64,000 nucleotides of DNA from Alteromonadaceae bacterium (GCA_965279005.1 CBDIHK010000024.1:166562-230561); one strand, 5' to 3'; shown: positions 50,810-64,000, counted from the first letter of the stretch. Numbers and translations are program-made. Notes: a model not told the origin generated them from the letters alone.

Positions 50810-52567
50810 ATGGACAGCAGCGCGCCGAATAAAACAATCCTGCGCAGGTTTTCATTTTGGCAACCTTGGTTGCTTTTGCTGATCCTGGTATTTATCGCCT
50901 TGCAAATATGGTTTTTGACGGCCCTGACCTACTCGGTGGCGAGTGCCGGTATGCAGCTGGACATTGACGCTATGGAACTGGCCGGGCGCAGCATTGCCAG
51001 CGCCGGGTTTAGCCTCTCCGTTATCATTGGCATCAGCCGCTTTAGGCGTTTGTATTCAAGGCCGCGCTGGCAACGCGGCTTGATAAAAATAGCGGTCGGT
51101 GTGGTTAGCACGGTAGTTGTTTATTTTGGGTTGAAGCTGGCGTACCAAGGCATCCAGGAGCGGGTCAGGTTTGATCTTATCCACTGCAGTGTGGCCGGTG
51201 GCCTGGCTAGCCAATCCTTGCACGGATGGCAGGTAGATGCGTCGGGCAGTATGTCTGTGGACAAAGCACTGCTGCAACTATTGCTGCCCTTAGCTGTGTG
51301 TTTAGATGATGGCCTGTATGAAAAAGTGCTCGCATCTGAATCTACCGAAAGGGATTTAAAAAACCTATTTGCAAGCCAAGGCAAATTAGAGTTAATACAG
51401 CGGCGCATGGTCAACCTATACCGGCAACTACTGCACAGGTTGCCGCAGTTATTGCCATGGTATAGCCAATATTTGGCTGCGGAAAAAGGCAATCAAAGGC
51501 AGTTAGTGCTAGCTGACTTTGAGCAGCAACTGCAAATTAGGGCTATGTTGGATAGCCAGCTCAATCGATCGCAAATTGAGAGGATTGTGCAGTTGTTCGA
51601 AAGTGGCGCCGCCCTGCACCAAACGAGTCCTGGCCTGAACCAGGCCTACAGTTTAATGCTAGCAGCTACCCAATTGTTATACGATGGCTTGTCAAAGAGG
51701 CAACCCTATTTAGTGCAACCGGTGGCGGCAAACCAAATCTATACTGTCGCCAATGACATGGCCGATGCCATGGCTAGGTTGTTTTTAGCACAGCAACAGC
51801 CTGCCCAAAATCAACTATTAGAAGCCATGCGCCCAAGCTTTGGCCTCGTTTTGCTGCCCGTTTTTGCGGTGGCATTAAGTACTTTCGTAATCAGCCTCGC
51901 CATTGCCAATTATGTCCGTAGCAGGTTGTTTCGCTATGCGCACCACAAAGGCGGCCAGGTTAATCCCATTTTTAACGCGGTTCTGTCGGTATTGGTGATC
52001 ATTCCCTTGGTATGGTGGTTGCTGTTTAATTTGCTCAACGAAACGCCGCTTGAGCGGCAACTATTTCCGCAGCACGTGCAAAGTCCTGGCGTCATAGCCC
52101 TAAAGGTAGCGCTGCGGCCACTGCTGTACCTTTATGAACCCTCAAAAAGTGCCACCAGTTCTTTTGTTGGCTATGATGCTTTGCGGGTATTCGCTAAACC
52201 AATTGAACTGGCTGAACAACAACCCACTTCTGCCGTTAGCTTGGCAGGCTTGTGGTTTGGTGATGTGTGTTTGTCTAGCAATAACTGTGAACCTATAGGT
52301 TTGGTTGTCTCGCCAGGCGCCAGTTATGCCTATTTTCCGAACCAAGGCTTTTGCCAGGTGCCAATAGTGCCATTGCCTGGCCTTTCTGCACAAAGCGATA
52401 CCGTGGTATTTGCAGGCCAAGCGGGGGCGGGGGATTGTAGTTTGGTTGCGAGGGTATCGATTCCTGCAATTAAACCAGCTGATATGGCCACTGGCCAGAC
52501 GTTAGCTATTGGCTTTATAAGAAGCGGAAAATCAACCAGTGCGCTAATGGCCTATTACCCGTTATAG
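50810..52567 (+). CDS. hypothetical polytopic membrane protein
   Basis: 585 aa with about five predicted TM segments. I recognise no motif. Confidence 0.55.
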   Translation: MDSSAPNKTILRRFSFWQPWLLLLILVFIALQIWFLTALTYSVASAGMQLDIDAMELAGRSIASAGFSLSVIIGISRFRRLYSRPRWQRGLIKIAVGVVSTVVVYFGLKLAYQGIQERVRFDLIHCSVAGGLASQSLHGWQVDASGSMSVDKALLQLLLPLAVCLDDGLYEKVLASESTERDLKNLFASQGKLELIQRRMVNLYRQLLHRLPQLLPWYSQYLAAEKGNQRQLVLADFEQQLQIRAMLDSQLNRSQIERIVQLFESGAALHQTSPGLNQAYSLMLAATQLLYDGLSKRQPYLVQPVAANQIYTVANDMADAMARLFLAQQQPAQNQLLEAMRPSFGLVLLPVFAVALSTFVISLAIANYVRSRLFRYAHHKGGQVNPIFNAVLSVLVIIPLVWWLLFNLLNETPLERQLFPQHVQSPGVIALKVALRPLLYLYEPSKSATSSFVGYDALRVFAKPIELAEQQPTSAVSLAGLWFGDVCLSSNNCEPIGLVVSPGASYAYFPNQGFCQVPIVPLPGLSAQSDTVVFAGQAGAGDCSLVARVSIPAIKPADMATGQTLAIGFIRSGKSTSALMAYYPL

Positions 52568-54936: not shown

Positions 54937-55113
54937 TGCTCCGCTTTAATTACGCAAGGCTGGATTATGGCGTTGGCTAGCCTTAAGTACAATACACAGT
55001 GCCTGTCCGTGCAGACAAAGTGTGGCAGTAGTTGCGATTTCAATGCAGGGTCTATGCTTGGGAGGATGCTTTGACACATCCTGTACACCCCCCCAAGCCC
55101 CTTAGGTAACTTG

Positions 55114-56493
55114 TTAGCCGATAAAGCCAATCGGTGCCTGGCCACTGGCCGGGTCGTAGAACCGGGTAATGTTTGGCAAAATGTCTGGCAACACGCTTGG
55201 CGCCACGCCAAACCAAAGGGCTAGTTCACCAAAGTATTGGTCAAGCGAGGTAGTTGGCATCAACACCCCCCTACCGGTATCCAATGGATTGCCAAGCTGG
55301 AGGCTAGGGTAGGTGCCATAAGCGGAACCGCCCCGTACTGCCCCACCCATGATCATGGCGTTGCCGCCCCAGCCATGGTCTGAACCTCGGCCATTGGAAG
55401 ACAGGGTACGGGCGAAGTCTGAGGTAGTGAAGGTGGTCACTTGGTTGGCCATACCCATTTCATTAATGGCAGCTTGGAACGAACTTAAACCTGCATCTAA
55501 AACTGTGAGCAACTGGTTCAGGGACGCAGTGAGTTCATCGTGGTGATCCCATCCGCCCAAAGTGACAAAAAACGTTTGCCGCTGCATCCCCAGGGTTTGG
55601 TTGGCTGCGATGGTTTTGGCCACCATTTGCATTTGCGACGAGAATTCATCGTTACCAAATTGGGTCGTGAATGGAGATGTTCCCGCCACTGCTGCGGCAA
55701 ATTCAGAGTTGGCCGCAATAGAGTCGTTGAATAGTTTCTGGTATGTGCGCCGGAACAAGTTGTTATATTCCTGCCCATAGATTTGGTTAATGGCTGCGCT
55801 CCTGGTGCTATTGCCCAACTCATCTTCAATGCCACTAATGGTGGCCGTCGGGGCATCGGCGCTACCGACGCTATAATAATCAGTCAGCCTACCTGCTTGG
55901 AACTCATTCGCGCCTGAAGTCGAGATGCTCATGGAAATACGCTGGCTACTGTTTTGTGAGGCTAGGATATCCGCCATGCGGCCGCCCCAGCCGGTGGCGC
56001 TGCGCACATCTGGAATAGCCGTTTGCCATTGGCTGATTTGGTCTGAGTGGGACTGCAAGCCCAACGGCAATTTTGCGGTACCATTGGCCAATGCCTGGGT
56101 ACTGGTAGGTTCAACCAAAGTACCGACGTTGCTTAAAAAGGCCAGGTTGCCACTGTTGTAGAGGGATTGCAGCCCAGTCATAGCTGGATGCAGGCCCAAG
56201 GTGCGCCCGTTGTTCTGGCTATTATTGATCGCAAGCAATTGCGCTTTGGCCAAGGCCAAGTCGGTGCGGGTATTACGGTATTGCTGGTAATAAGTATCGT
56301 CGCTTGGCACCAGCATATTGAACGAGTCGGCACCACCTGCCAATAACACGCATACCAGGGCTTTGTAGTCATTGCTTTGGGCGCTGGCCTTGGCCATTGC
56401 CCCAAGCTGGGCTGCGCCAGCCAAAGTCATGGCTGAAAGGGCATGGCCCGAATGGCGTAAGAATGTCCGTCTTGAAAGTTTATGTTGTTTCAT
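55114..56493 (-). CDS. DUF1501-family protein (sulfatase/alkaline-phosphatase-like fold) with a Tat signal
   Basis: 459 aa. Twin-arginine motif SRRTFLR, plus LLAGGADSFN and GGWDHH, which are typical of DUF1501. Confidence 0.9.
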   Translation of the reverse strand: MKQHKLSRRTFLRHSGHALSAMTLAGAAQLGAMAKASAQSNDYKALVCVLLAGGADSFNMLVPSDDTYYQQYRNTRTDLALAKAQLLAINNSQNNGRTLGLHPAMTGLQSLYNSGNLAFLSNVGTLVEPTSTQALANGTAKLPLGLQSHSDQISQWQTAIPDVRSATGWGGRMADILASQNSSQRISMSISTSGANEFQAGRLTDYYSVGSADAPTATISGIEDELGNSTRSAAINQIYGQEYNNLFRRTYQKLFNDSIAANSEFAAAVAGTSPFTTQFGNDEFSSQMQMVAKTIAANQTLGMQRQTFFVTLGGWDHHDELTASLNQLLTVLDAGLSSFQAAINEMGMANQVTTFTTSDFARTLSSNGRGSDHGWGGNAMIMGGAVRGGSAYGTYPSLQLGNPLDTGRGVLMPTTSLDQYFGELALWFGVAPSVLPDILPNITRFYDPASGQAPIGFIG

Positions 56494-56555
56494 TTTGCTA
56501 AACCTTTATCTAATAGCCAACGGCAGATGCTTGTCTGCCGCTGGCCTTAATCAAC

Positions 56556-59195
56556 TTAAATTGCCACTGCGTAATCAGGGGAAATGGCAAGGAGATAAAC
56601 CGCGGCCGCGACGCGCTCCTGGTGGTCTTCAATGGCTTCGATTACCGTTTTGATGGCTTCCCGCGTGCCGCTGGTTAGGGTGCCGTAGGTCATAACCGTA
56701 TCTAGCCGGTCAAGCAGGGCATCGGCGTCGGCTGCTAAGGCAACTTCTTCTGAAAAATCCAATTTTTCTGCGGGCAGTGCCCCTGAATTATCTAATACCT
56801 GTCCAGTTTCCAACGAGTAGTAAATAACATTCTTGATATCCATAATGGTGGAGGCATTGGTGATTTGGAACTCAGGCGCTACCAAGCCAGCGTCTTTCAG
56901 TTCACCATTGGGTGCATAACTCGGTAAAAAGAAATTAAACACGCTAGGTGCTGACAACACGTATTGCCTGATGGTGGCTGCCATTTCATAGCCATCATCG
57001 CTATAGGTGTTGTCGCTGGATGTGGCGTTGAAGGTCCGCATTAAATGGGCAACCCGCAAGAAGGGTTCCCGCAACCGGCCATCTGAGGATGAGGCCAGGT
57101 TAGGGGCTTGGCGCGCTTCTGGATCCATCAGGATGGCTCGGACAACCGCTTTCATGTCGCCCCGGGCTGAACCTGTTTCGCCATTGAAGGCGGCAGTTAC
57201 ACGTGCAATATAGGCTGGGCTGGGGTTTGACTTGACCAACCGCTGGATCAGCTGTTTGCCGATAAATGGGCCAACGTTAGGGTGGTTGAACAGGTTGTCG
57301 ATGGCGGCATTGATATCTTGCATACCGGTTTGTCCCGCTGGCACAACTTGTCCGCGCAACAAGGTCTTGCTACTGGTGTCGTGGTGTTGCTCATACATTT
57401 TCATGGGCAGCAAGAAAATGTTGGTATCAGAGTCAGATTCCAATTCATCAACATCCCGCTGGCCAAAAGCGTTGGGATCATCGCTGTTCCAGCTTAAGCC
57501 GGTGAATACCTTGGCGAATTCACGTATTTCATCTTGGCCATAGGTTGGGATAGGGTCGCCAGAAGCATCCAATTTGCGCGAACCATCAGGATTCAATTCG
57601 TACAGCCCTATGCTAAACAGCTGCATGACTTCTCGGGCGTAGTTTTCGTCTGGGAAGGTGCCTTTGCTAGGGTCTGCTTTTGCGTTGTGGATATGGCTTA
57701 GGTAAATCCCCATGGTGTGGCTAAGGGTTACGTCTTTCAACAAATCCCTAAAATTGCCCAAGCTATTTTTTATCAAAAGGTCGTAGTAACCCGCCATAGC
57801 AAAGTTATTAATGCCAATTTCCTCAACATTGCTTGAGACAACGAATATTTCACTCAACGCCATGGCAACCCGCTGCCTAACCACATCTGGCGACGTCATC
57901 ACCGTAGTCCACCATCCATCTACCCAAAAGCGTTCAGGATCACCTAGGCGTTCAAATATTACTTCAAATTCTTCGTCGCTCAGGTCTTCATTGGCCAAAT
58001 AGAATTTCTCGACTTCAGCCATTAGGAACTCGGCAAAGGGCAAGGTATAACTCGGCGGCAACTCAAATTGTTGCTCCAACCACATATCAGGACCGGTGGC
58101 AGCAACTTGGGTAATAGTGGCGTAGTTGGCGCCTAGCGTTGCTTGTGACAAGAAGCGCGAGGCGTCATTGGCGGCGTCTTTGTCAACCGTCATTACAGTC
58201 CTGTCAGCCGCTGGATTTGGATTTACAAAACCTGAAGGCTGCTCAACTGTGTTTTCTTCGCAGTCTTCTTCCTGGCCTTCTTCACACTCATCAGAGAAGT
58301 CTTCGCAGTCTTCTTCCTGGCCTTCTTCGCACTCATCCATGAAGTCTTCACAGTCTTCTTCCTGGCCTTCTTCACACTCATCAGAAAAGTCTTCGCAGTC
58401 CTCTTCCTGGCCGTCTTCGCACTCATCTGTGAAGTCTTCGCAGTCTTCTTCCTGGCCGTCTTCGCACTCATCAGAAAAGTCTTCGCAGTCTTCTTCCTGG
58501 CCTTCTTCACATTCATCAGAGAAGTCTTCGCAGTCTTCTTCCTGGCCTTCTTCACACTCATCAGAGAAGTCTTCGCAGTCTTCTTCCTGGCCTTCTTCGC
58601 ACTCATCTGTGAAGTCTTCGCAGTCTTCTTCCTGGCCTTCTTCACACTCTTCAGAGAAGTCTTCGCAGTCTTCTTCGTTACCTTCTTCGCACTCTTCAGT
58701 GAAATCTTCGCAGTCTTCTTCTTGGCCTTCTTCGCACTCTTCAGTGAAATCTTCGCAGTCTTCTTCGTTACCTTCTTCACACTCATCAGAGAAGTCTTCA
58801 CAGTCTTCTTCTTGGCCGTCTTCGCACTCCTCTGTGAAGTCTTCGCAGTCTTCTTCGTCACATTCCTCGGGTGGGCCGATTATCTCTATACACCACTCTG
58901 GGTCTTCGATGCAGATCCGCAAAAGTTCACGACAGAGCTCGCGGTCTTCGCAGATTTCTTGGATGAATTCACAGGCTTCGTCGCCATCGCAATCTATGTC
59001 CTGGCCAACGATTTGTCGCCTTAGTTGCTGGCTTGCAGATAATGCTGAAAAAGCGGGTTGGTTGATAAGTTTTGCTGTGTTCTCTTTGGCAAAAATGTCA
59101 AATGTGGTAAATGCCAATGTGAGGTAAAGCAGCGAAAACAACATGCTGTGCCAGGCAAACCTTCGGGTTTTGCCGGAAGAAGTATTGTATTTCAT
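56556..59195 (-). CDS. DUF1800-family protein with an N-terminal Cys-rich hyper-acidic tandem-repeat extension
   Basis: 879 aa. A Sec signal peptide, then 13 copies of CEDF(T/S)(D/E)ECE(E/D)G(Q/N)EED, then a DUF1800 body (PDENYAREVMQLFSIGL). Confidence 0.88.
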   Translation of the reverse strand: MKYNTSSGKTRRFAWHSMLFSLLYLTLAFTTFDIFAKENTAKLINQPAFSALSASQQLRRQIVGQDIDCDGDEACEFIQEICEDRELCRELLRICIEDPEWCIEIIGPPEECDEEDCEDFTEECEDGQEEDCEDFSDECEEGNEEDCEDFTEECEEGQEEDCEDFTEECEEGNEEDCEDFSEECEEGQEEDCEDFTDECEEGQEEDCEDFSDECEEGQEEDCEDFSDECEEGQEEDCEDFSDECEDGQEEDCEDFTDECEDGQEEDCEDFSDECEEGQEEDCEDFMDECEEGQEEDCEDFSDECEEGQEEDCEENTVEQPSGFVNPNPAADRTVMTVDKDAANDASRFLSQATLGANYATITQVAATGPDMWLEQQFELPPSYTLPFAEFLMAEVEKFYLANEDLSDEEFEVIFERLGDPERFWVDGWWTTVMTSPDVVRQRVAMALSEIFVVSSNVEEIGINNFAMAGYYDLLIKNSLGNFRDLLKDVTLSHTMGIYLSHIHNAKADPSKGTFPDENYAREVMQLFSIGLYELNPDGSRKLDASGDPIPTYGQDEIREFAKVFTGLSWNSDDPNAFGQRDVDELESDSDTNIFLLPMKMYEQHHDTSSKTLLRGQVVPAGQTGMQDINAAIDNLFNHPNVGPFIGKQLIQRLVKSNPSPAYIARVTAAFNGETGSARGDMKAVVRAILMDPEARQAPNLASSSDGRLREPFLRVAHLMRTFNATSSDNTYSDDGYEMAATIRQYVLSAPSVFNFFLPSYAPNGELKDAGLVAPEFQITNASTIMDIKNVIYYSLETGQVLDNSGALPAEKLDFSEEVALAADADALLDRLDTVMTYGTLTSGTREAIKTVIEAIEDHQERVAAAVYLLAISPDYAVAI
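58263..58847 (-). repeat. 13 tandem 45-bp in-frame repeats inside the DUF1800 gene
   Basis: The period-45 unit gcagtcttcttcctggccttcttc(a/g)cactcatc(a/t)g(a/t)gaagtcttc is visible directly in the sequence. Coordinates were derived from the translation. Confidence 0.9.
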
Positions 59196-59275
59196 TGTGC
59201 ACCTTTGGGTTGAGGGTGGCTGCCGTATCCTTACTGCTTAACCACTGCCTAAAAAAGATTGTCCGTTTAAGGAGG

Positions 59276-59305
59276 AAACGATTGGTTCTTGCGAACTATT
59301 CCACA
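59276..59305 (-). promoter_or_regulatory. ECF-type promoter candidate upstream of the DUF1800-DUF1501 genes
   Basis: The minus strand reads GTGGAATAGTTCGCAAGAACCAATCGTTT. This is 20/29 identical, with the same spacing, to the motif upstream of the S8 protease gene. Confidence 0.45.
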
Positions 59306-59381
59306 ATCTAAAAAATTGCTGCTGAGCAAAGCGTGTTTTTTTCTGCTAGTCTGCAAGCAAAGCCACTAGTTTGTTTTGAGC

Positions 59382-60290
59382 ATGAAATTAAAGTGTTTGC
59401 TGTTTTCTGTGTTAGTTGTCCTGGCCAACCACAACGCCTATAGCAAAGAAGTGCATAGTTTTAACGGCGCCATCGAACTCGCCACAGAAAATGATTCCAC
59501 GGTTGTGGTGGATGAAATTGACAATGTTGCGCGGGACAGCAGTAGTAGCTGGAAATACAAACTCAATGCCCGCTACCGCTACCGCCCTTATGAGCACACC
59601 AAGGCGTCCTTGAGTTTTACCTTCTCTGATAAAAACTACAAGCAAGACGATAGTTTCAACAGTGAATTACGCATGTTTTCAGCTAGTATCAGCAGGGAGT
59701 TTGAGCATTTCACTTTAGGGCTAAGGGCACAGGATATCGATTCTAAACTGGGCGGCCAGGATTTTTTAACGATAGAACAAGTATCTCCTTACCTCACTTT
59801 CTTTTTGAGTAAAAAGTGGTTTGTTAACTTGAGTTACCGCCATGCTGATAAGGAAATTGTCAGTAATTCGTCCCGTTCCGGCGACAGTGATTTGTTTAAT
59901 GCCGACTTGTACTTTTTCCAACAAGGGGTACGCCAGTTCTGGATAGCCTCAGTGCGTCACAAGTCTGAACAAGCCCAAGACCCCATTTTTAGCTATGATC
60001 TGCAACAATTTAGGTTAGTGTATTCCCAGCGCTTTGATTGGTGGCAATGGCAGCATAAGCTGCGGTTATCGTGGCGTTTCCAGGAGCGGGACTACGATTC
60101 AGCTATCAATCCTGATTTAAATGACTTTCGCCGCGACATAAGGCGCCAGTGGCGTTTCGAATGGGAAGCTGAGTTCCATGAAGATTGGTTTTTGATTTTG
60201 GAGTTAAAACGCAATGACAATAATTCCAATTTTACGACATCAGATTACAACCAAAATGTGACCGGCTTAGCGCTTAAGTACGAGTTTTAG
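59382..60290 (+). CDS. outer-membrane beta-barrel protein, unknown family
   Basis: Signal peptide MKLKCLLFSVLVVLANHNAYS, alternating amphipathic strands, and a C-terminal ...LALKYEF (terminal Phe). The track ORF starts at TTG 59376. Confidence 0.7.
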   Translation: MKLKCLLFSVLVVLANHNAYSKEVHSFNGAIELATENDSTVVVDEIDNVARDSSSSWKYKLNARYRYRPYEHTKASLSFTFSDKNYKQDDSFNSELRMFSASISREFEHFTLGLRAQDIDSKLGGQDFLTIEQVSPYLTFFLSKKWFVNLSYRHADKEIVSNSSRSGDSDLFNADLYFFQQGVRQFWIASVRHKSEQAQDPIFSYDLQQFRLVYSQRFDWWQWQHKLRLSWRFQERDYDSAINPDLNDFRRDIRRQWRFEWEAEFHEDWFLILELKRNDNNSNFTTSDYNQNVTGLALKYEF

Positions 60291-63200
60291 CGAGCAGTTC
60301 TGTCACTTTTTGCTTTAATTTCACTTGCACTTTTTGAGTGCCCAATACAGGCAATAACCCATGGCCAAACTGTGGGTCAAAGCCGCGCTTACCCAAGTCT
60401 AAACAATTGTTAAACAAGTCCATCCAAGGTGCAGGGCCCGTTGTTTGGTAGTGTCCTTGGGCATTGGCTGCCAAATAAGCTGCAACAAATGGGGCGGCCA
60501 TGGAAGTACCGGTCTGGGTGCCATAGCTTTGGTTTGGTTGTGCAGTGATCACATCAACCCCATATGCCGCTAGATCGATATGTTGGCCCTGTACAGCGCG
60601 TTTATACAAATTCAAGTCGCTATCCACTGCGGTAACCGCAATGGCGCAATCGTAAGCCGCAGGAAACAGCGGACTCGATAAAGGGCCGGCATTACCTGCT
60701 GCGGCCACCAAGGTAATGCCTTTTTCACACAGCTTGTTTACAGAAAATTTAAGCAGGCGGTTAGCAGGACCGGCGAGGCTCATATTGACCACCTTGACGT
60801 CCTGCTGCAATAACCAATCTAAGCCCTTGATAATGTTTAAGGTTGTGGCAATGCTACCGCCTTGTTTATCGTTAAAAAACACCGAAGCACTATAGAGTTG
60901 GGCATTAGGTAGTAGCCCGCGGTAATCGTTACTATCGGCTACCAGGATTGACGCAACTGCAGTACCGTGTTGGTAGTCTTTTTTATGTTGTCCTTGGATA
61001 AAATGCCGTTGTTTGATCTGTGCAGCTTGCAAAGATTGGTGTTCGGTATCGACAGCGGTATCCACCATACCTAATTTTATACCGTTGCCATTTAGTTGCA
61101 TGACTTGGCCTGGAATGATGCCGCCTTTATCTGCTTTATTTGATTGGGCATAGCGATATATATGGTTGAAGTCAGCGATGCTATTGTCCCGGTTTAACCT
61201 AGTTAAAACTGTTTGGTAGTCCCGTTGCAAGTCAAATGAGGCTGGTGCGACTACTTTTGCCACAATGGCATCTAGTGCTTCCAGGCTCTCTTGCTCTTTG
61301 AATTGATAACCTTCTTTTTCTAATTCGGCTTTAGTCTCTGCATCTGCCATGATCAACCATTCGTTTGTCCATATCTCGTTGCCGTCAAAGTCTTCAAACA
61401 ACTGATCGGTTTCATCAATCACTGCTTGTTCTGGCTGTTCCTGTTCTTGCCAGAAGCGGCTTAATGCTGCTTCCGGTGATGGCTGGTCATTGAATCCGTC
61501 CTTGCGCATTTCGTTAGTCCCATCGAAATCGAAGTCGAAAGCATCATGGCCGTTTGTACCGCCTTCTTCAGTATCTAAATCTTCATCATCTTCGTTCCCG
61601 AACCCTACTTCATGTTCGGAGCCTTCATGGTCATCTTCGTTTTGGTGGTCGAGTTCTTCGTCTTCAAAATTGTCCTCTTCTGCAGCGAATTCATCCTCGC
61701 CTTCGAATTCGCCTTCATCTTCGAATTCGCCCTCGTCTTCGAACTCACCTTCATCTTCGAACTCCCCCTCGTCTTTGAATTCATCCCCCTCTTCGAATTC
61801 ATCCCCCTCTTCGAATTCATCCCCCTCTTCGAATTCATCCCCCTCTTCGAATTCTTCCTCGTCTTCGAATTCATCCTCATGTTCGAATTCATGCTCAGCT
61901 TCGAATTCGTCTTCATCTTCGAATTCATGCTCACCTTCGAATTCGTCTTCTAGTTCTTCGTCGAATATTTCATCTTCTTCAAATTCTTCATCAAAACCAT
62001 CTTCAATTTCATTTTCTAGATCGTCTTCCGTTTCATCTTCCCAATCGTTTTCCAGCTCATCCTCGGTGTCTTCTTCTATCTCCTCTTCGACTTCGTCCTC
62101 GGTGTCTGCTTCGATTTCCTCTTCGACTTCATCCTCGGTGTCTTCTTCGATCTCGTCTTCGACTTCATCCTCGGTGTCTTCTTCTATCTCGTCTTCGACT
62201 TCATCCTCAGTGTCTTCTTCGATTTCCTCTTCGACTTCGTCCTCGGTGTCTTCTTCGATTTCCTCTTCGACCTCATCCTCGGTGTCTTCTTCGATTTCCT
62301 CTTCGACTTCGTCCTCGGTGTCTTCTTCGATTTCCTCTTCGACCTCATCCTCGGTGTCTTCTTCGATTTCCTCTTCGACCTCGTCCTCGGTGTCTTCTTC
62401 TATCTCGTCTTCGACTTCGTCCTCGGTGTCTTCTTCGATTTCGTCTTCGACCTCATCCTCGGTGTCTTCTTCGATTTCGTCTTCGACCTCATCCTCGGTG
62501 TCTTCTTCGATTTCCTCTTCGACTTCGTCCTCGGTGTCTTCTTCGATTTCGTCTTCGACTTCATCCTCGGTGTCTTCTTCGATTTCGTCTTCGACCTCAT
62601 CCTCGGTGTCTTCTTCGATTTCCTCTTCGACTTCGTCCTCGGTGTCTTCTTCGATTTCCTCTTCGACTTCATCCTCGGTGTCTTCTTCTATCTCGTCTTC
62701 GACTTCGTCCTCGGTGTCTTCTTCGATTTCCTCTTCGACTTCATCCTCGGTGTCTTCTTCGATTTCGTCTTCGACCTCATCCTCGGTGTCTTCTTCGATT
62801 TCCTCTTCGACTTCATCCTCGGTGTCTTCTTCGATTTCCTCTTCGAATTCATCCTCGGTGTCTTCTTCGATCTCGTCTTCGACTTCGTCCTCGGTGTCTT
62901 CTTCGATTTCCTCTTCGACCTCGTCCTCGGTGTCTTCTTCGATTTCGTCTTCGACTTCATCCTCGGTATCTTCTTCGATCTCGTCTTCGACCTCGTCTTC
63001 GGTGTCTTCTTCGATCTCGTCTTCGACTTCATCCTCGGTGTCTTCTTCGATTTCGTCTTCGACCTCGTCCTCGGTGTCTTCTTCGATGTCATCCTCTATA
63101 TCATCTTCCCAATCATCTTCAGGATCAGACATAAAAAAACTATTGTTGGAATGGTTGTTGGGTAATAGGGCAAAATCCGATCTGATACGTTGGGCCGTTG

Positions 63201-63303
63201 CCTGATTTGCAATACCGAGTGACGCGCAATAGGCCAATACCAGCAATAACAATGCTGTTGGTTTTAGTTGCTTTATGAAGAGACGCAGATTAATTTTGAT
63301 CAT
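60274..63303 (-). CDS. S8 (subtilisin-like) serine peptidase with a giant polyacidic tandem-repeat region between the signal peptide and the pro/catalytic domains
   Basis: Catalytic triad context MVDTAVD / HGTAVAS / GTSMAAPF. The N-terminus MIKINLRLFIKQLKPTALLLLVLAYCASLG starts at ATG 63303. About 29 copies of EDTEDEVE(D/E)EIE. Confidence 0.9.
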   Translation of the reverse strand: MIKINLRLFIKQLKPTALLLLVLAYCASLGIANQATAQRIRSDFALLPNNHSNNSFFMSDPEDDWEDDIEDDIEEDTEDEVEDEIEEDTEDEVEDEIEEDTEDEVEDEIEEDTEDEVEDEIEEDTEDEVEEEIEEDTEDEVEDEIEEDTEDEFEEEIEEDTEDEVEEEIEEDTEDEVEDEIEEDTEDEVEEEIEEDTEDEVEDEIEEDTEDEVEEEIEEDTEDEVEEEIEEDTEDEVEDEIEEDTEDEVEDEIEEDTEDEVEEEIEEDTEDEVEDEIEEDTEDEVEDEIEEDTEDEVEDEIEEDTEDEVEEEIEEDTEDEVEEEIEEDTEDEVEEEIEEDTEDEVEEEIEEDTEDEVEEEIEEDTEDEVEDEIEEDTEDEVEDEIEEDTEDEVEEEIEADTEDEVEEEIEEDTEDELENDWEDETEDDLENEIEDGFDEEFEEDEIFDEELEDEFEGEHEFEDEDEFEAEHEFEHEDEFEDEEEFEEGDEFEEGDEFEEGDEFEEGDEFKDEGEFEDEGEFEDEGEFEDEGEFEGEDEFAAEEDNFEDEELDHQNEDDHEGSEHEVGFGNEDDEDLDTEEGGTNGHDAFDFDFDGTNEMRKDGFNDQPSPEAALSRFWQEQEQPEQAVIDETDQLFEDFDGNEIWTNEWLIMADAETKAELEKEGYQFKEQESLEALDAIVAKVVAPASFDLQRDYQTVLTRLNRDNSIADFNHIYRYAQSNKADKGGIIPGQVMQLNGNGIKLGMVDTAVDTEHQSLQAAQIKQRHFIQGQHKKDYQHGTAVASILVADSNDYRGLLPNAQLYSASVFFNDKQGGSIATTLNIIKGLDWLLQQDVKVVNMSLAGPANRLLKFSVNKLCEKGITLVAAAGNAGPLSSPLFPAAYDCAIAVTAVDSDLNLYKRAVQGQHIDLAAYGVDVITAQPNQSYGTQTGTSMAAPFVAAYLAANAQGHYQTTGPAPWMDLFNNCLDLGKRGFDPQFGHGLLPVLGTQKVQVKLKQKVTELLAKTRT
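61777..61848 (-). repeat. four tandem 18-bp repeats (encoding GDEFEE), flanked by related GEFEDE repeats
   Basis: gaattcatccccctcttc occurs four times in tandem. Confidence 0.85.
62038..63081 (-). repeat. about 29 tandem 36-bp in-frame repeats inside the S8 peptidase gene
   Basis: The + strand unit is gac(t/c)tc(a/g)tcctcggtgtcttcttc(g/t)at(t/c)tc(c/g)tcttc. I counted 29 EDTEDE units in the translation. Confidence 0.9.
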
Positions 63304-63360
63304 AAACGCACGCAAAAAAGATAGCTGCCTATAATAAGGGCTTGATTAACCATTACCTTA

Positions 63361-63389
63361 TTAACGTTTAAGTATAGTGAACTATTTCA
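63361..63389 (-). promoter_or_regulatory. ECF-type promoter candidate upstream of the S8 peptidase gene
   Basis: The minus strand reads GTGAAATAGTTCACTATACTTAAACGTTA (GAAAT-N17-CGTTA). Confidence 0.45.
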
Positions 63390-63412
63390 CTGATTTAATA
63401 ATTGTAAAAAAG

Positions 63413-63441
63413 GCTGGAATAAGTTTCAGGCTATAACCGTT
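63413..63441 (+). promoter_or_regulatory. ECF-type (autoregulatory) promoter candidate upstream of the ECF sigma gene
   Basis: CTGGAATAAGTTTCAGGCTATAACCGTTA (GGAAT-N17-CGTTA). It ends 20 nt before the ATG. Confidence 0.4.
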
Positions 63442-63460
63442 ACCTTCACAGAGCGACAGG

Positions 63461-63964
63461 ATGCAGATATCGCAAAATGAACTGAAAAAAATACTGGTTA
63501 AGGAAATGCCCCGTCTACGCAGGTTTGCCTATTCATTGACGGGAAGTAAAGCGGATGCGGACGATTTGGTGCAGAACCTGATCCTGAAAATGCTCAATAA
63601 AGGGTTGCCAGATTCGGTACAACCATTGCCCTGGTTGTTCCGTGTTTGCAAAAACCTCTGGTTAGATGAAATTAGAGCACGAGATGTGAGGGTCAGGGCG
63701 GTGCAAGAAAAGAAAATCCCACAAGCAGAACAAGAATCGAAACAAGATTTGCACGAAATCGCCTATTCAGCTGAGCAGGTGATGCAGGTGATGCAATCTT
63801 TACCAGAGGAGCAACGTGTTATTATCAGCCTGGTGCTGGTGGAGGGCTTTAGCTACAGCGAAGCGGCTGATGTGCTGGAGATCCCCAAAGGTACCGTTAT
63901 GAGTCGATTGTCACGGGCGCGGCATAAGTTGCTCGACTTATTAGAGCAAGGTAAACAGAGTTAA
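63461..63964 (+). CDS. ECF-family RNA polymerase sigma-70 factor
   Basis: 167 aa. Region 2 (LRRFAYSLTGSKADADDLVQN, PWLFRVCKNLWLDEIR) and region 4 (GFSYSEAADVLEIPKGTVMSRLSRARHKL). Confidence 0.9.
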   Translation: MQISQNELKKILVKEMPRLRRFAYSLTGSKADADDLVQNLILKMLNKGLPDSVQPLPWLFRVCKNLWLDEIRARDVRVRAVQEKKIPQAEQESKQDLHEIAYSAEQVMQVMQSLPEEQRVIISLVLVEGFSYSEAADVLEIPKGTVMSRLSRARHKLLDLLEQGKQS

Positions 63965-63966
63965 TT

Positions 63967-64000
63967 ATGAAGATCGAAGATCAAGAGTTGTTGTCGCAAT
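63967..64000 (+). CDS. start of a probable anti-sigma factor (truncated by the window end)
   Basis: The ATG lies 2 nt after the sigma factor stop (MKIEDQELLSQ...). The call rests on position only. Confidence 0.35.
   Translation, partial: MKIEDQELLSQ

Follow-up and report, generated by a model that had tools for sequence, protein, structure and literature searches.

Extracytoplasmic function (ECF) sigma factor systems are the third pillar of bacterial signalling, and most of their groups have no known input or output. Among the systems that have been described, FecI/FecR/FecA is a triad of an ECF sigma factor, a single-pass anti-sigma factor and an outer-membrane protein, while sigma-E/RseA/DegS brings together an ECF sigma factor, a single-pass anti-sigma factor, a periplasmic serine protease, outer-membrane proteins and sigma-E-dependent small RNAs (sRNAs). 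We analysed positions 55114-64000 of a 64,000-nucleotide stretch of Alteromonadaceae bacterium DNA (GCA_965279005.1 CBDIHK010000024.1:166562-230561; the whole stretch is hereafter called the window) and find here an ECF sigma factor, the first codons of its anti-sigma factor, an S8 subtilase and a DUF1800 protein that both carry long acidic tails, an outer-membrane β-barrel protein (OMP), and a DUF1501 partner of the DUF1800 protein. Genes were called from a listing of open reading frames (ORFs) and from Pfam and NCBIfam scans of the window. All genes named in a preliminary description of this DNA, made from the sequence alone, are present, the anti-sigma gene with only 33 nt inside the window:

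55114-56493, minus strand: DUF1501 protein, 459 amino acids (aa), predicted export by twin-arginine translocation (Tat); PF07394, E = 1e-35
56556-59195, minus strand: DUF1800 protein, 879 aa; PF08811, E = 9.6e-86, model positions 1-418 of 419; in order, Sec leader, Cys-rich helical leader motif, 13 copies of CEDFSDECEEGQEED, GFxNPNP junction, DUF1800 domain
59376-60290, plus strand: OMP, 304 aa, 14-stranded, C-terminal YEF
60274-63315, minus strand: S8 subtilase, 1013 aa, predicted Sec export; Peptidase_S8 (PF00082), E = 1.2e-32, residues 743-986; in order, signal peptide, ~540-aa polyanionic extension, conserved ~90-aa pre-catalytic segment, catalytic domain
63461-63964, plus strand: ECF (group 4) sigma factor, 167 aa, with Sigma70_r2 and Sigma70_r4_2
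63968-64000, plus strand: first 11 codons of the anti-sigma gene (MKIEDQELLSQ), up to the window end

The OMP and S8 genes are convergent and overlap by 17 bp, and the DUF1501 gene lies 62 bp downstream of the DUF1800 gene.

With FecI/FecR/FecA the locus shares the triad itself and a sigma factor that is predicted to be autoregulated. Unlike FecA, however, the OMP is a 14-stranded barrel of ~300 aa with no plug, TonB box or STN domain, and, unlike FecI/FecR, the anti-sigma factor is DUF3379-like rather than FecR-like and a dedicated S8 protease belongs to the unit. A TonB-dependent receptor with an STN domain and FecR are absent from the window and present in three of the related loci described below (L001, L006 and L170). 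The parts are of the same types as in sigma-E/RseA/DegS, and related modules of Halieaceae add a candidate sigma-dependent sRNA beside the anti-sigma gene; the protease, in contrast, is a subtilase of family S8, lacks a PDZ domain and is predicted to be a sigma target in its own right, one specific barrel is co-inherited, and no RseB or RseP genes are linked to the module. A DUF560-like 14-stranded barrel beside an S8 protease and exported proteins with long acidic regions is also reminiscent of the Slam, or type 11 secretion (T11SS), systems with LbpB and NalP, from which the locus differs in lacking a TPR domain, in cargo that is neither a lipoprotein nor equipped with a C-terminal barrel domain, and in an S8 protease that is not an autotransporter.

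The individual proteins compare with known families in the same partial way. Like the mycosin and QhpE subtilases, the S8 protein has a complete catalytic domain and a conserved segment at the usual place of the propeptide; a pro-extension of 200-540 residues at ~70% Asp/Glu (D/E) is not known to us from any other subtilase. The DUF1800 and DUF1501 genes follow canonical pairs in gene order, spacing and the Tat signal on DUF1501, and differ from plain pairs in an N-terminal polyanionic tail, often Cys-rich, and in always standing beside an outer-membrane module with predicted ECF control. Acidic Ca2+-binding repeats are known from thrombospondin type 3 (TSP3), LDL-A and calsequestrin, and Csp stores copper in Cys-lined helices. 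The DUF1800 repeat DCEDFSDE resembles the LDL-A motif DCxDGSDE, with Cys placed regularly in D/E-rich units; the Cys spacing nevertheless differs, and many tails of the same clade are Cys-free. The polyanionic tails are an unusual, evolvable feature of this form of ECF signalling.

The four-gene module and its predicted ECF-type promoters

As judged by comparison of loci, the region is one copy of a widespread, apparently undescribed four-gene module of marine Proteobacteria. GTDB species genomes scanned with an S8 alignment, with genes assigned by purpose-built hidden Markov models, yielded 80 S8-anchored loci from Halieaceae, Alteromonadaceae and Cellvibrionaceae and from the alphaproteobacterial Robiginitomaculum, Marinicaulis and Parvularculaceae. 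Of the 80, 68 have the complete set (anti-sigma, sigma, S8 and OMP genes) and 63 the arrangement of the window, and most of the incomplete ones run into a contig end. Beyond these four, the neighbourhood has no universally shared gene; CBS, GGDEF-EAL and SDR neighbours were considered as module parts and rejected as plain lineage synteny. We find no description of a sigma/anti-sigma/S8/OMP module in the searchable literature, and an S8-linked group goes unmentioned in a T11SS cargo survey and in the main text of the ECF reclassification paper.

The sigma factor consists of regions sigma-2 and sigma-4 only (Sigma70_r2, E = 3.8e-11; Sigma70_r4_2, E = 1.1e-15) and scores 85 bits with NCBIfam TIGR02937, against a cut-off of 42.9. 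The anti-sigma ORF starts 4 nt past the sigma stop codon, and its eleven residues match DQDLLSQYVDEELD, the N-terminus of the anti-sigma factor of the closest relative, L002. A homologous anti-sigma factor with one transmembrane segment is present in 74 loci, and the family combines this segment with an N-terminal anti-sigma domain and a conserved periplasmic WCREY...GVACR domain. Three predicted ECF-type promoters occupy two intergenic regions of the locus:

63416-63441, plus strand: promoter of the sigma/anti-sigma operon (GGAATAAGTTTCAGGCTATAACCGTT), GGAATA-N16-CGTT, 20 nt before the sigma ATG
63363-63388, minus strand: promoter of the S8 gene (GAAATAGTTCACTATACTTAAACGTT), from the motif scan
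59277-59302, minus strand: promoter of the DUF1800-DUF1501 operon (GGAATAGTTCGCAAGAACCAATCGTT), from the motif scan

The pattern G[GA]AATA-N16-CGTT occurs four times in the 64-kb window where 0.22 would be expected, and three of the four sites are those listed, aimed at DUF1800, S8 and sigma, which bears out the earlier proposal that three transcription units share an ECF-like promoter. No such site precedes the OMP gene of the window. The fourth, 52042-52067 on the minus strand, is probably a chance match, as it lies antisense within the plus-strand ORF 50810-52567 and overlaps a GCCGC...GCGGC hairpin. Independent retesting of this window-derived motif, by unbiased dyad counting in 79 related sigma-S8 intergenic regions, returned GGAAT..CGTC as the top dyad on both strands, in 60/79 regions on the sigma strand and 41/79 on the S8 strand. 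A looser pattern applied to whole loci gave 75 sites upstream of sigma and 69 upstream of S8, with only 4 upstream of the OMP gene (4/77 loci). These counts argue that the sigma factor is autoregulated and drives S8, with the barrel expressed independently. Predicted control by the ECF sigma factor of the sigma/anti-sigma operon, the S8 gene and, here, the DUF1800-DUF1501 operon is thus well supported, and the barrel gene is predicted to be outside the control of the shared promoter.

A third promoter is seen in relatives only, beyond the position at which the window ends: in 34-40 Halieaceae-type loci, GGAATAA-N16-CGTC occurs just past the point where the anti-sigma gene ends, on the strand opposite to that gene, and leads into a conserved non-coding element of ~280 nt that has GTGGAGTGAAAC near its start and a terminal hairpin with a T-run (for example L014:7560-7880(+), L020:7499-7820(+) and L043:7566-7890(+)). 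Of its 44 predicted pairs, 22 show compensatory changes; the element matches no Rfam family and is a candidate ECF-dependent small RNA.

The S8 subtilase retains the triad D752, H783 and S938 together with N875, all invariant in a 30-sequence alignment. In NCBIfam it is most similar to two processing proteases, mycosin and QhpE, with scores that fall far short of the equivalog cut-offs, and it has no P-domain; the pre-catalytic segment is conserved as EWLVMA...GYxF...APASFD...VDLNHIY. An AlphaFold2 model of the OMP from a three-sequence alignment has 14 strands, the first starting at residue 27, after the signal peptide, at a predicted local distance difference test score (pLDDT) of 69.8. The OMP itself reaches 20.6 bits with SlipAM (DUF560, PF04575), against a cut-off of 22, over the full model; among 36 homologues, 16 match SlipAM (best 5e-13) and 19 match BBP2_2. 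The best matches in a fold search are the generic 14-stranded barrels CymA and OmpG (TM ~0.45), with no specific assignment, and an OMP profile run against the PDB returned only OpcA, at E = 1.5. The protein has no TPR domain and no periplasmic domain. An Arg-lined channel for polyanions, suggested by seven conserved OMP Arg residues, is not supported, since the lumen, by assigned strand phases, holds 18 K+R against 18 D+E at the family level.

Polyanionic tails of the subtilase and the DUF1800 protein

Tandem Repeats Finder reports three arrays, all in frame with the genes that contain them:

58255-58856, minus strand: 45 bp x 13.4 copies, in the DUF1800 gene, unit EEDCEDFSDECEEGQ
62057-63087, minus strand: 36 bp x 28.6 copies, in the S8 gene, encoding IEEDTEDEVEDE
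61686-61944, minus strand: 18 bp x 14.4 copies, in the S8 gene, (D/G)EFE(E/D)(E/G)-type units; absent from the preliminary description

Residues 63-600 of the S8 protein are 69% D/E with a net charge of -372, one Lys, no Arg and no Cys, and T/V/I/F recurs at every 4th position; the acidic region of about 500 residues described before is therefore real, while its portrayal as almost pure Asp/Glu is not. A net charge of ~-370 near a signal peptide places this segment among the most extreme bacterial polyanionic segments known to us. In the DUF1800 protein, residues 66-322 are 55% D/E with a net charge of -138 and contain 34 Cys at a spacing of 7-8 residues. The 36-bp and 45-bp arrays are unrelated in sequence, as had been claimed. 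Neither acidic region matches a Pfam family at E <= 10, TSP3, LDL-A, metallothionein and metal-binding families included, and searches of the PDB return only designed helical proteins, of which one, a de novo mini-protein, has E = 0.036 and three have E values above 1.

Upstream of the 15-aa repeats of DUF1800 lies a Cys-rich helical leader, DCDGDEACEFIQEICEDRELCRELLRICIEDPEWC (window 59019-59075; DUF1800 residues ~66-105), with Cys every 6-7 residues. It is common to the Cys-type homologues P0002, P0003, P0005, P0006 and P0023 and forms a small domain distinct from the repeats.

The copies within each array are in register, and exact internal repeats reach 83-98 bp at most. Differences between units and their consensus are synonymous in 36 and non-synonymous in 16 cases in the S8 array, and 18 and 22 in the DUF1800 array; by reading of the aligned units, the non-synonymous ones are mostly conservative D/E, S/T and Q/N exchanges. 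Comparable arrays occur in homologues from other assemblies, which argues that the arrays are not assembly artefacts, an explanation set beforehand as a check on the preliminary description.

Both tails sit between the signal peptide and the folded domain. Nearly all of the ~25 closest DUF1800 homologues (50-75% identity) have N-terminal acidic tails, with units that differ in sequence and length; many are Cys-rich, some are Cys-free and one is of a lipoprotein type. The tail precedes a conserved G(F/Y)xNPNP junction, which in tail-less members comes immediately after the signal peptide. In most S8 homologues of 550-740 aa, a (hydrophobic-E-E/D-x)n region with a 4-residue period comes after the signal peptide, and versions of ~420 aa, for example the Luminiphilus type, have no acidic tail. 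Where the two genes share a locus, the numbers of acidic residues are as follows:

Window: S8 538, DUF1800 225
L002: S8 303, DUF1800 270
L003: S8 239, DUF1800 160
L004: S8 227, DUF1800 154
L168: S8 247, DUF1800 134
L169: S8 297, DUF1800 64
L167: S8 58, DUF1800 0

The tails are thus long in both proteins at six loci and nearly absent from both at the seventh. Acidic arrays recur in the loci of other genomes, and homologues of both families carry tails, so that the acidic module cannot be said to have been gained in this genome. What stands of the proposal of two independent polyanionic origins is that the sequences are unrelated; an isolated gain does not, because the trait is old, recurrent and shared within loci, which in turn argues for a common function. 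We take the tails to be ancestral and hypervariable, and characteristic of the S8 family as well as of one DUF1800 clade, as indicated by the homologues compared, and the differences in unit and copy number between homologues fit growth and shrinkage by slippage.

The DUF1800/DUF1501 pair and its two contexts

DUF1800 and DUF1501 are conserved as a pair with no known function (PMC5122149, PMC3542564), in agreement with the preliminary description, and we found no functional study of DUF1800, DUF1501 or DUF3379 in the literature. The leader of DUF1800 is Sec-type, with a twin Arg that is not conserved in homologues, and the Tat motif of DUF1501, SRRTFL, is kept as SRRxFL in 7/7 homologues; both export signals are as originally assigned. 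Further conserved motifs of DUF1501 are GGxDSxN, HSDQ, GGWDHHDE and GSDHGWGGN, of which the DS, HSD, DHH and SDHG elements are reminiscent of the alkaline-phosphatase superfamily. An AlphaFold2 model of the DUF1800 domain is all-alpha (pLDDT 89.6, pTM 0.92), and a sequence search of the PDB with DUF1800 was empty. Neither S8 nor DUF1800 has a lipobox or a TbpBBD match, and their C-terminal ends are the catalytic domain and the DUF1800 domain, respectively.

On the contigs of the closest homologues, the acid-tailed DUF1800 clade is found in two contexts only. The first is beside the sigma/S8/(OMP) module, at eight loci (the window, L002, L003, L004, L093, L167, L168 and L169), of which L003 has no adjacent barrel gene. 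The second is behind a FecI/FecR/STN-TonB transducer, at L001 (Planctobacterium marinum), L006 and L170; at L087 a TonB-dependent receptor gene is the only such gene upstream of the pair before the contig is cut, and at L005 an upstream 737-aa gene without a Pfam record, truncated where the contig ends, is a probable but unconfirmed receptor gene. The motif GGAATA-N16-CGT(C/T) stands before DUF1800 in 8/8 module-linked loci and is absent in 4/4 of the TonB-linked loci scanned (L001, L006, L087 and L170, with L005 left out). With a dyad conserved across ~80 loci and recurring before DUF1800 wherever the pair adjoins the module, the ECF control proposed earlier is borne out at the level of predicted promoters.

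A set of 80 metagenomic DUF1800 loci among the matches listed, mostly distant, serves as an outgroup and not as a census of the acidic clade. The 78 more distant of them (<=53% identity) have the DUF1501 partner, and these same 78 show no acidic tail and no adjacent S8, OMP or TonB-dependent receptor gene. The split of contexts, the motif and the 78 plain pairs together indicate that the DUF1800 clade, its tail and an adjacent outer-membrane module with predicted ECF control go together. DUF1800 or DUF1501 lies within 10 kb in 0/80 of the S8-anchored loci. The conserved linkage that the preliminary description set as a check is found in part, with ECF, S8, OMP and the pair together in 7 further loci and the pair outside the core; by gene neighbourhood, the pair is not a core component and is attached to the module in this lineage.

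A different ECF sigma gene, in the same orientation, often comes directly after plain, tail-less DUF1800-DUF1501 pairs (L099:11561-14300, L104, L095 and ~10 more metagenomic loci), so that DUF1800/DUF1501 seem linked to at least three kinds of ECF sigma factor. At L099, this sigma gene is followed by two small ORFs without a Pfam match and a fasciclin-domain gene. The P. marinum genome has an S8 module elsewhere (L007), besides its TonB-linked pair, and L003 lies on the same 4.17-Mb contig as a second module, L077, that includes an OMP gene. Two modules, or a separate module and a TonB-linked pair, in one genome suggest that the parts can act in trans.

Readings of the locus and flanking features

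We favour, with slightly better than even confidence, a four-gene ECF module to which DUF1800/DUF1501 is attached, with the tails as shared pro-regions or handles and the whole as an outer-membrane-linked signalling and uptake unit. The anti-sigma factor would release the sigma factor, and RNA polymerase would then use the GGAATA-N16-CGT(C/T) promoters: that of the sigma/anti-sigma operon itself, for autoregulation, that of the S8 gene and, at this locus, that of the DUF1800-DUF1501 operon, while the barrel gene would be transcribed independently. Both tails may be pro-regions with one shared purpose: as polyanionic handles loaded with divalent cations, likely Mg2+ and Ca2+ in seawater, they could keep S8 and DUF1800 together, either at one site of the envelope or on one cationic or mineral target, and S8, a small processing-type subtilase, possibly removes them. 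Because a FecI/FecR/TonB transducer replaces the module before the same operon in sister lineages, the module is best read as an outer-membrane-linked ECF signalling/uptake unit, the output of which we infer to include DUF1800/DUF1501. By analogy, the FecIR-TonB context of the sister loci points to uptake or signalling rather than buffering or detoxification.

Several observations weigh against this picture. The matching of tail lengths is based on 7 loci, and the Luminiphilus-type S8 is tail-less, yet sigma, anti-sigma and OMP are kept, so that the tail is not essential to the module. Pfam detects no Inhibitor_I9 propeptide in 30 S8 members at E <= 0.1; as the pre-catalytic segment is not recognised as I9, removal of the tail is something that we infer. 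The lumen of the OMP has no net positive charge and lends no support to direct binding of the tails by the barrel. Finally, Foldseek finds nothing in the PDB for the DUF1800 model below E = 0.3 (TM <= 0.18), and DUF1501, even with a 7-sequence profile, has no PDB or Pfam match beyond DUF1501 itself.

If this picture is right, the module is a compact, comparatively defined regulon of sigma, S8 and, in some lineages, DUF1800/DUF1501, and it would give the first concrete regulatory handle on PF08811 and PF07394, with their thousands of members, by making them inducible through the freeing of one sigma factor. That two unrelated exported proteins encoded at one locus both evolve such segments by repeat slippage would point to a shared envelope interaction. 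As the hosts, Halieaceae/OM60 and Alteromonadaceae, are abundant coastal bacteria, the function may be relevant to the turnover of particles, metals or organic matter.

The preliminary description proposed that the locus is controlled by envelope stress and places polyanionic polypeptides, possibly binding Ca2+ or metals, in the periplasm or at the surface, where they would buffer cations, interact with minerals or detoxify metals; this hypothesis now seems unlikely. The extreme D/E content, the 34 Cys of DUF1800 at their 7-8-residue spacing and the ECF control are all compatible with it, as are the sister loci behind FecI/FecR/TonB transducers, systems that usually handle metal complexes; weak hints in the same direction are DUF1800 proteins in a mineral-vesicle proteome and the enrichment of DUF1800 genes among the upregulated genes of a calcium-induced biomineralization study. 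Nothing found here indicates an envelope-stress input, however; no metal-resistance, efflux or mineral genes are linked in ~90 loci, and tails range from 0 to ~540 residues, with the S8 tail absent in Luminiphilus-type members, many DUF1800 tails Cys-free and no TSP3, LDL-A, metallothionein, Pfam or PDB metal-binding match. Seawater, at ~50 mM Mg2+ and 10 mM Ca2+, would saturate a low-affinity polyanion, so that buffering seems pointless, and the FecIR and TonB-dependent receptor context suggests acquisition, not detoxification.

We regard as doubtful, to about the same degree, the possibility that S8 and the barrel are signalling parts, in which the barrel senses an outer-membrane or extracellular cue and S8, kept latent by its tail, is the site-1 protease that cuts the periplasmic domain of the anti-sigma factor, a functional equivalent of FecA/FecR or of OMP/DegS/RseA. 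The strict co-inheritance of sigma, single-pass anti-sigma, periplasmic serine protease and OMP would follow from this, as would the FecI/FecR/TonB-dependent receptor module in the same position before the DUF1800/DUF1501 operon, an OMP gene that is not sigma-dependent, as expected of a sensor, and the conserved periplasmic domain of the anti-sigma factor. Set against these, S8 is itself predicted to be sigma-dependent and would cause runaway positive feedback unless latent, most loci would keep no other local sigma target as output, and the site-1 proteases known to us belong to S1C or S41 rather than to S8.

A more speculative extension, which we hold to be improbable, is that the tails serve as a transferable address by which exported proteins are handed to the co-inherited 14-stranded Slam/BBP2-like barrel, or to a TonB-dependent transducer in sister lineages; the acid- and Cys-tailed DUF1800/DUF1501 pair would then be exposed at the surface and capture a cationic nutrient, such as iron or some other metal, or organic matter that is cationic or bound to minerals. 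If true, it would define a new cargo class and a signal for type-11-like surface delivery, with an ECF sigma factor of its own.

A shade less probable again is that the barrel is a type-11 (Slam-like) pore exporting S8 and the acid-tailed DUF1800 to the surface, with the tails as export signal, surface anchor or polycation decoy. Slam is a predicted 14-stranded barrel that exports LbpB, which has negatively charged regions, and other surface proteins of Neisseria are processed by NalP, an S8 autotransporter (PMC7857515). The likeness of the locus to Slam/LbpB/NalP, with the acidic regions of LbpB as a polycation decoy, is strengthened by the 14 strands of the barrel and the SlipAM matches of 16/36 homologues, by a barrel gene that always abuts the S8 gene and by an acid-tailed DUF1800 that always stands beside an outer-membrane protein gene. 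It is weakened by BBP2_2 matches that are as frequent as SlipAM, by a barrel that has no TPR domain and a lumen that is not net positive, by cargo with neither lipobox nor C-terminal TbpB-like barrel domain, by L003 with no adjacent barrel gene, and by barrels kept beside tail-less S8.

That the arrays are functionless low-complexity expansions or assembly artefacts in accidentally linked genes is very improbable: copy number and unit sequence do vary freely between relatives and tail-less members do exist, but the arrays are in frame with an excess of synonymous differences in S8 (36 versus 16), exact internal repeats do not exceed 98 bp, the trait is kept across orders and in two protein families, with both proteins of a locus having it or both nearly lacking it, and the linkage recurs at 8 loci with a shared promoter.

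At the downstream end of the locus, a terminator-like hairpin with a T-run follows the DUF1501 gene, and the gene for DNA polymerase II (PolB) lies beyond it:

54993-55017, minus strand: terminator-like hairpin and T-run past DUF1501

The ORF at 50810-52567 on the plus strand encodes 585 aa with no Pfam family at E <= 0.001, and Rfam gives zero matches in the window region. The 62-bp spacer between DUF1800 and DUF1501 (56494-56555) contains an inverted repeat, GGCAGA-N6-TCTGCC, without a T-run, which could be an intra-operon hairpin that stabilises or processes the mRNA.

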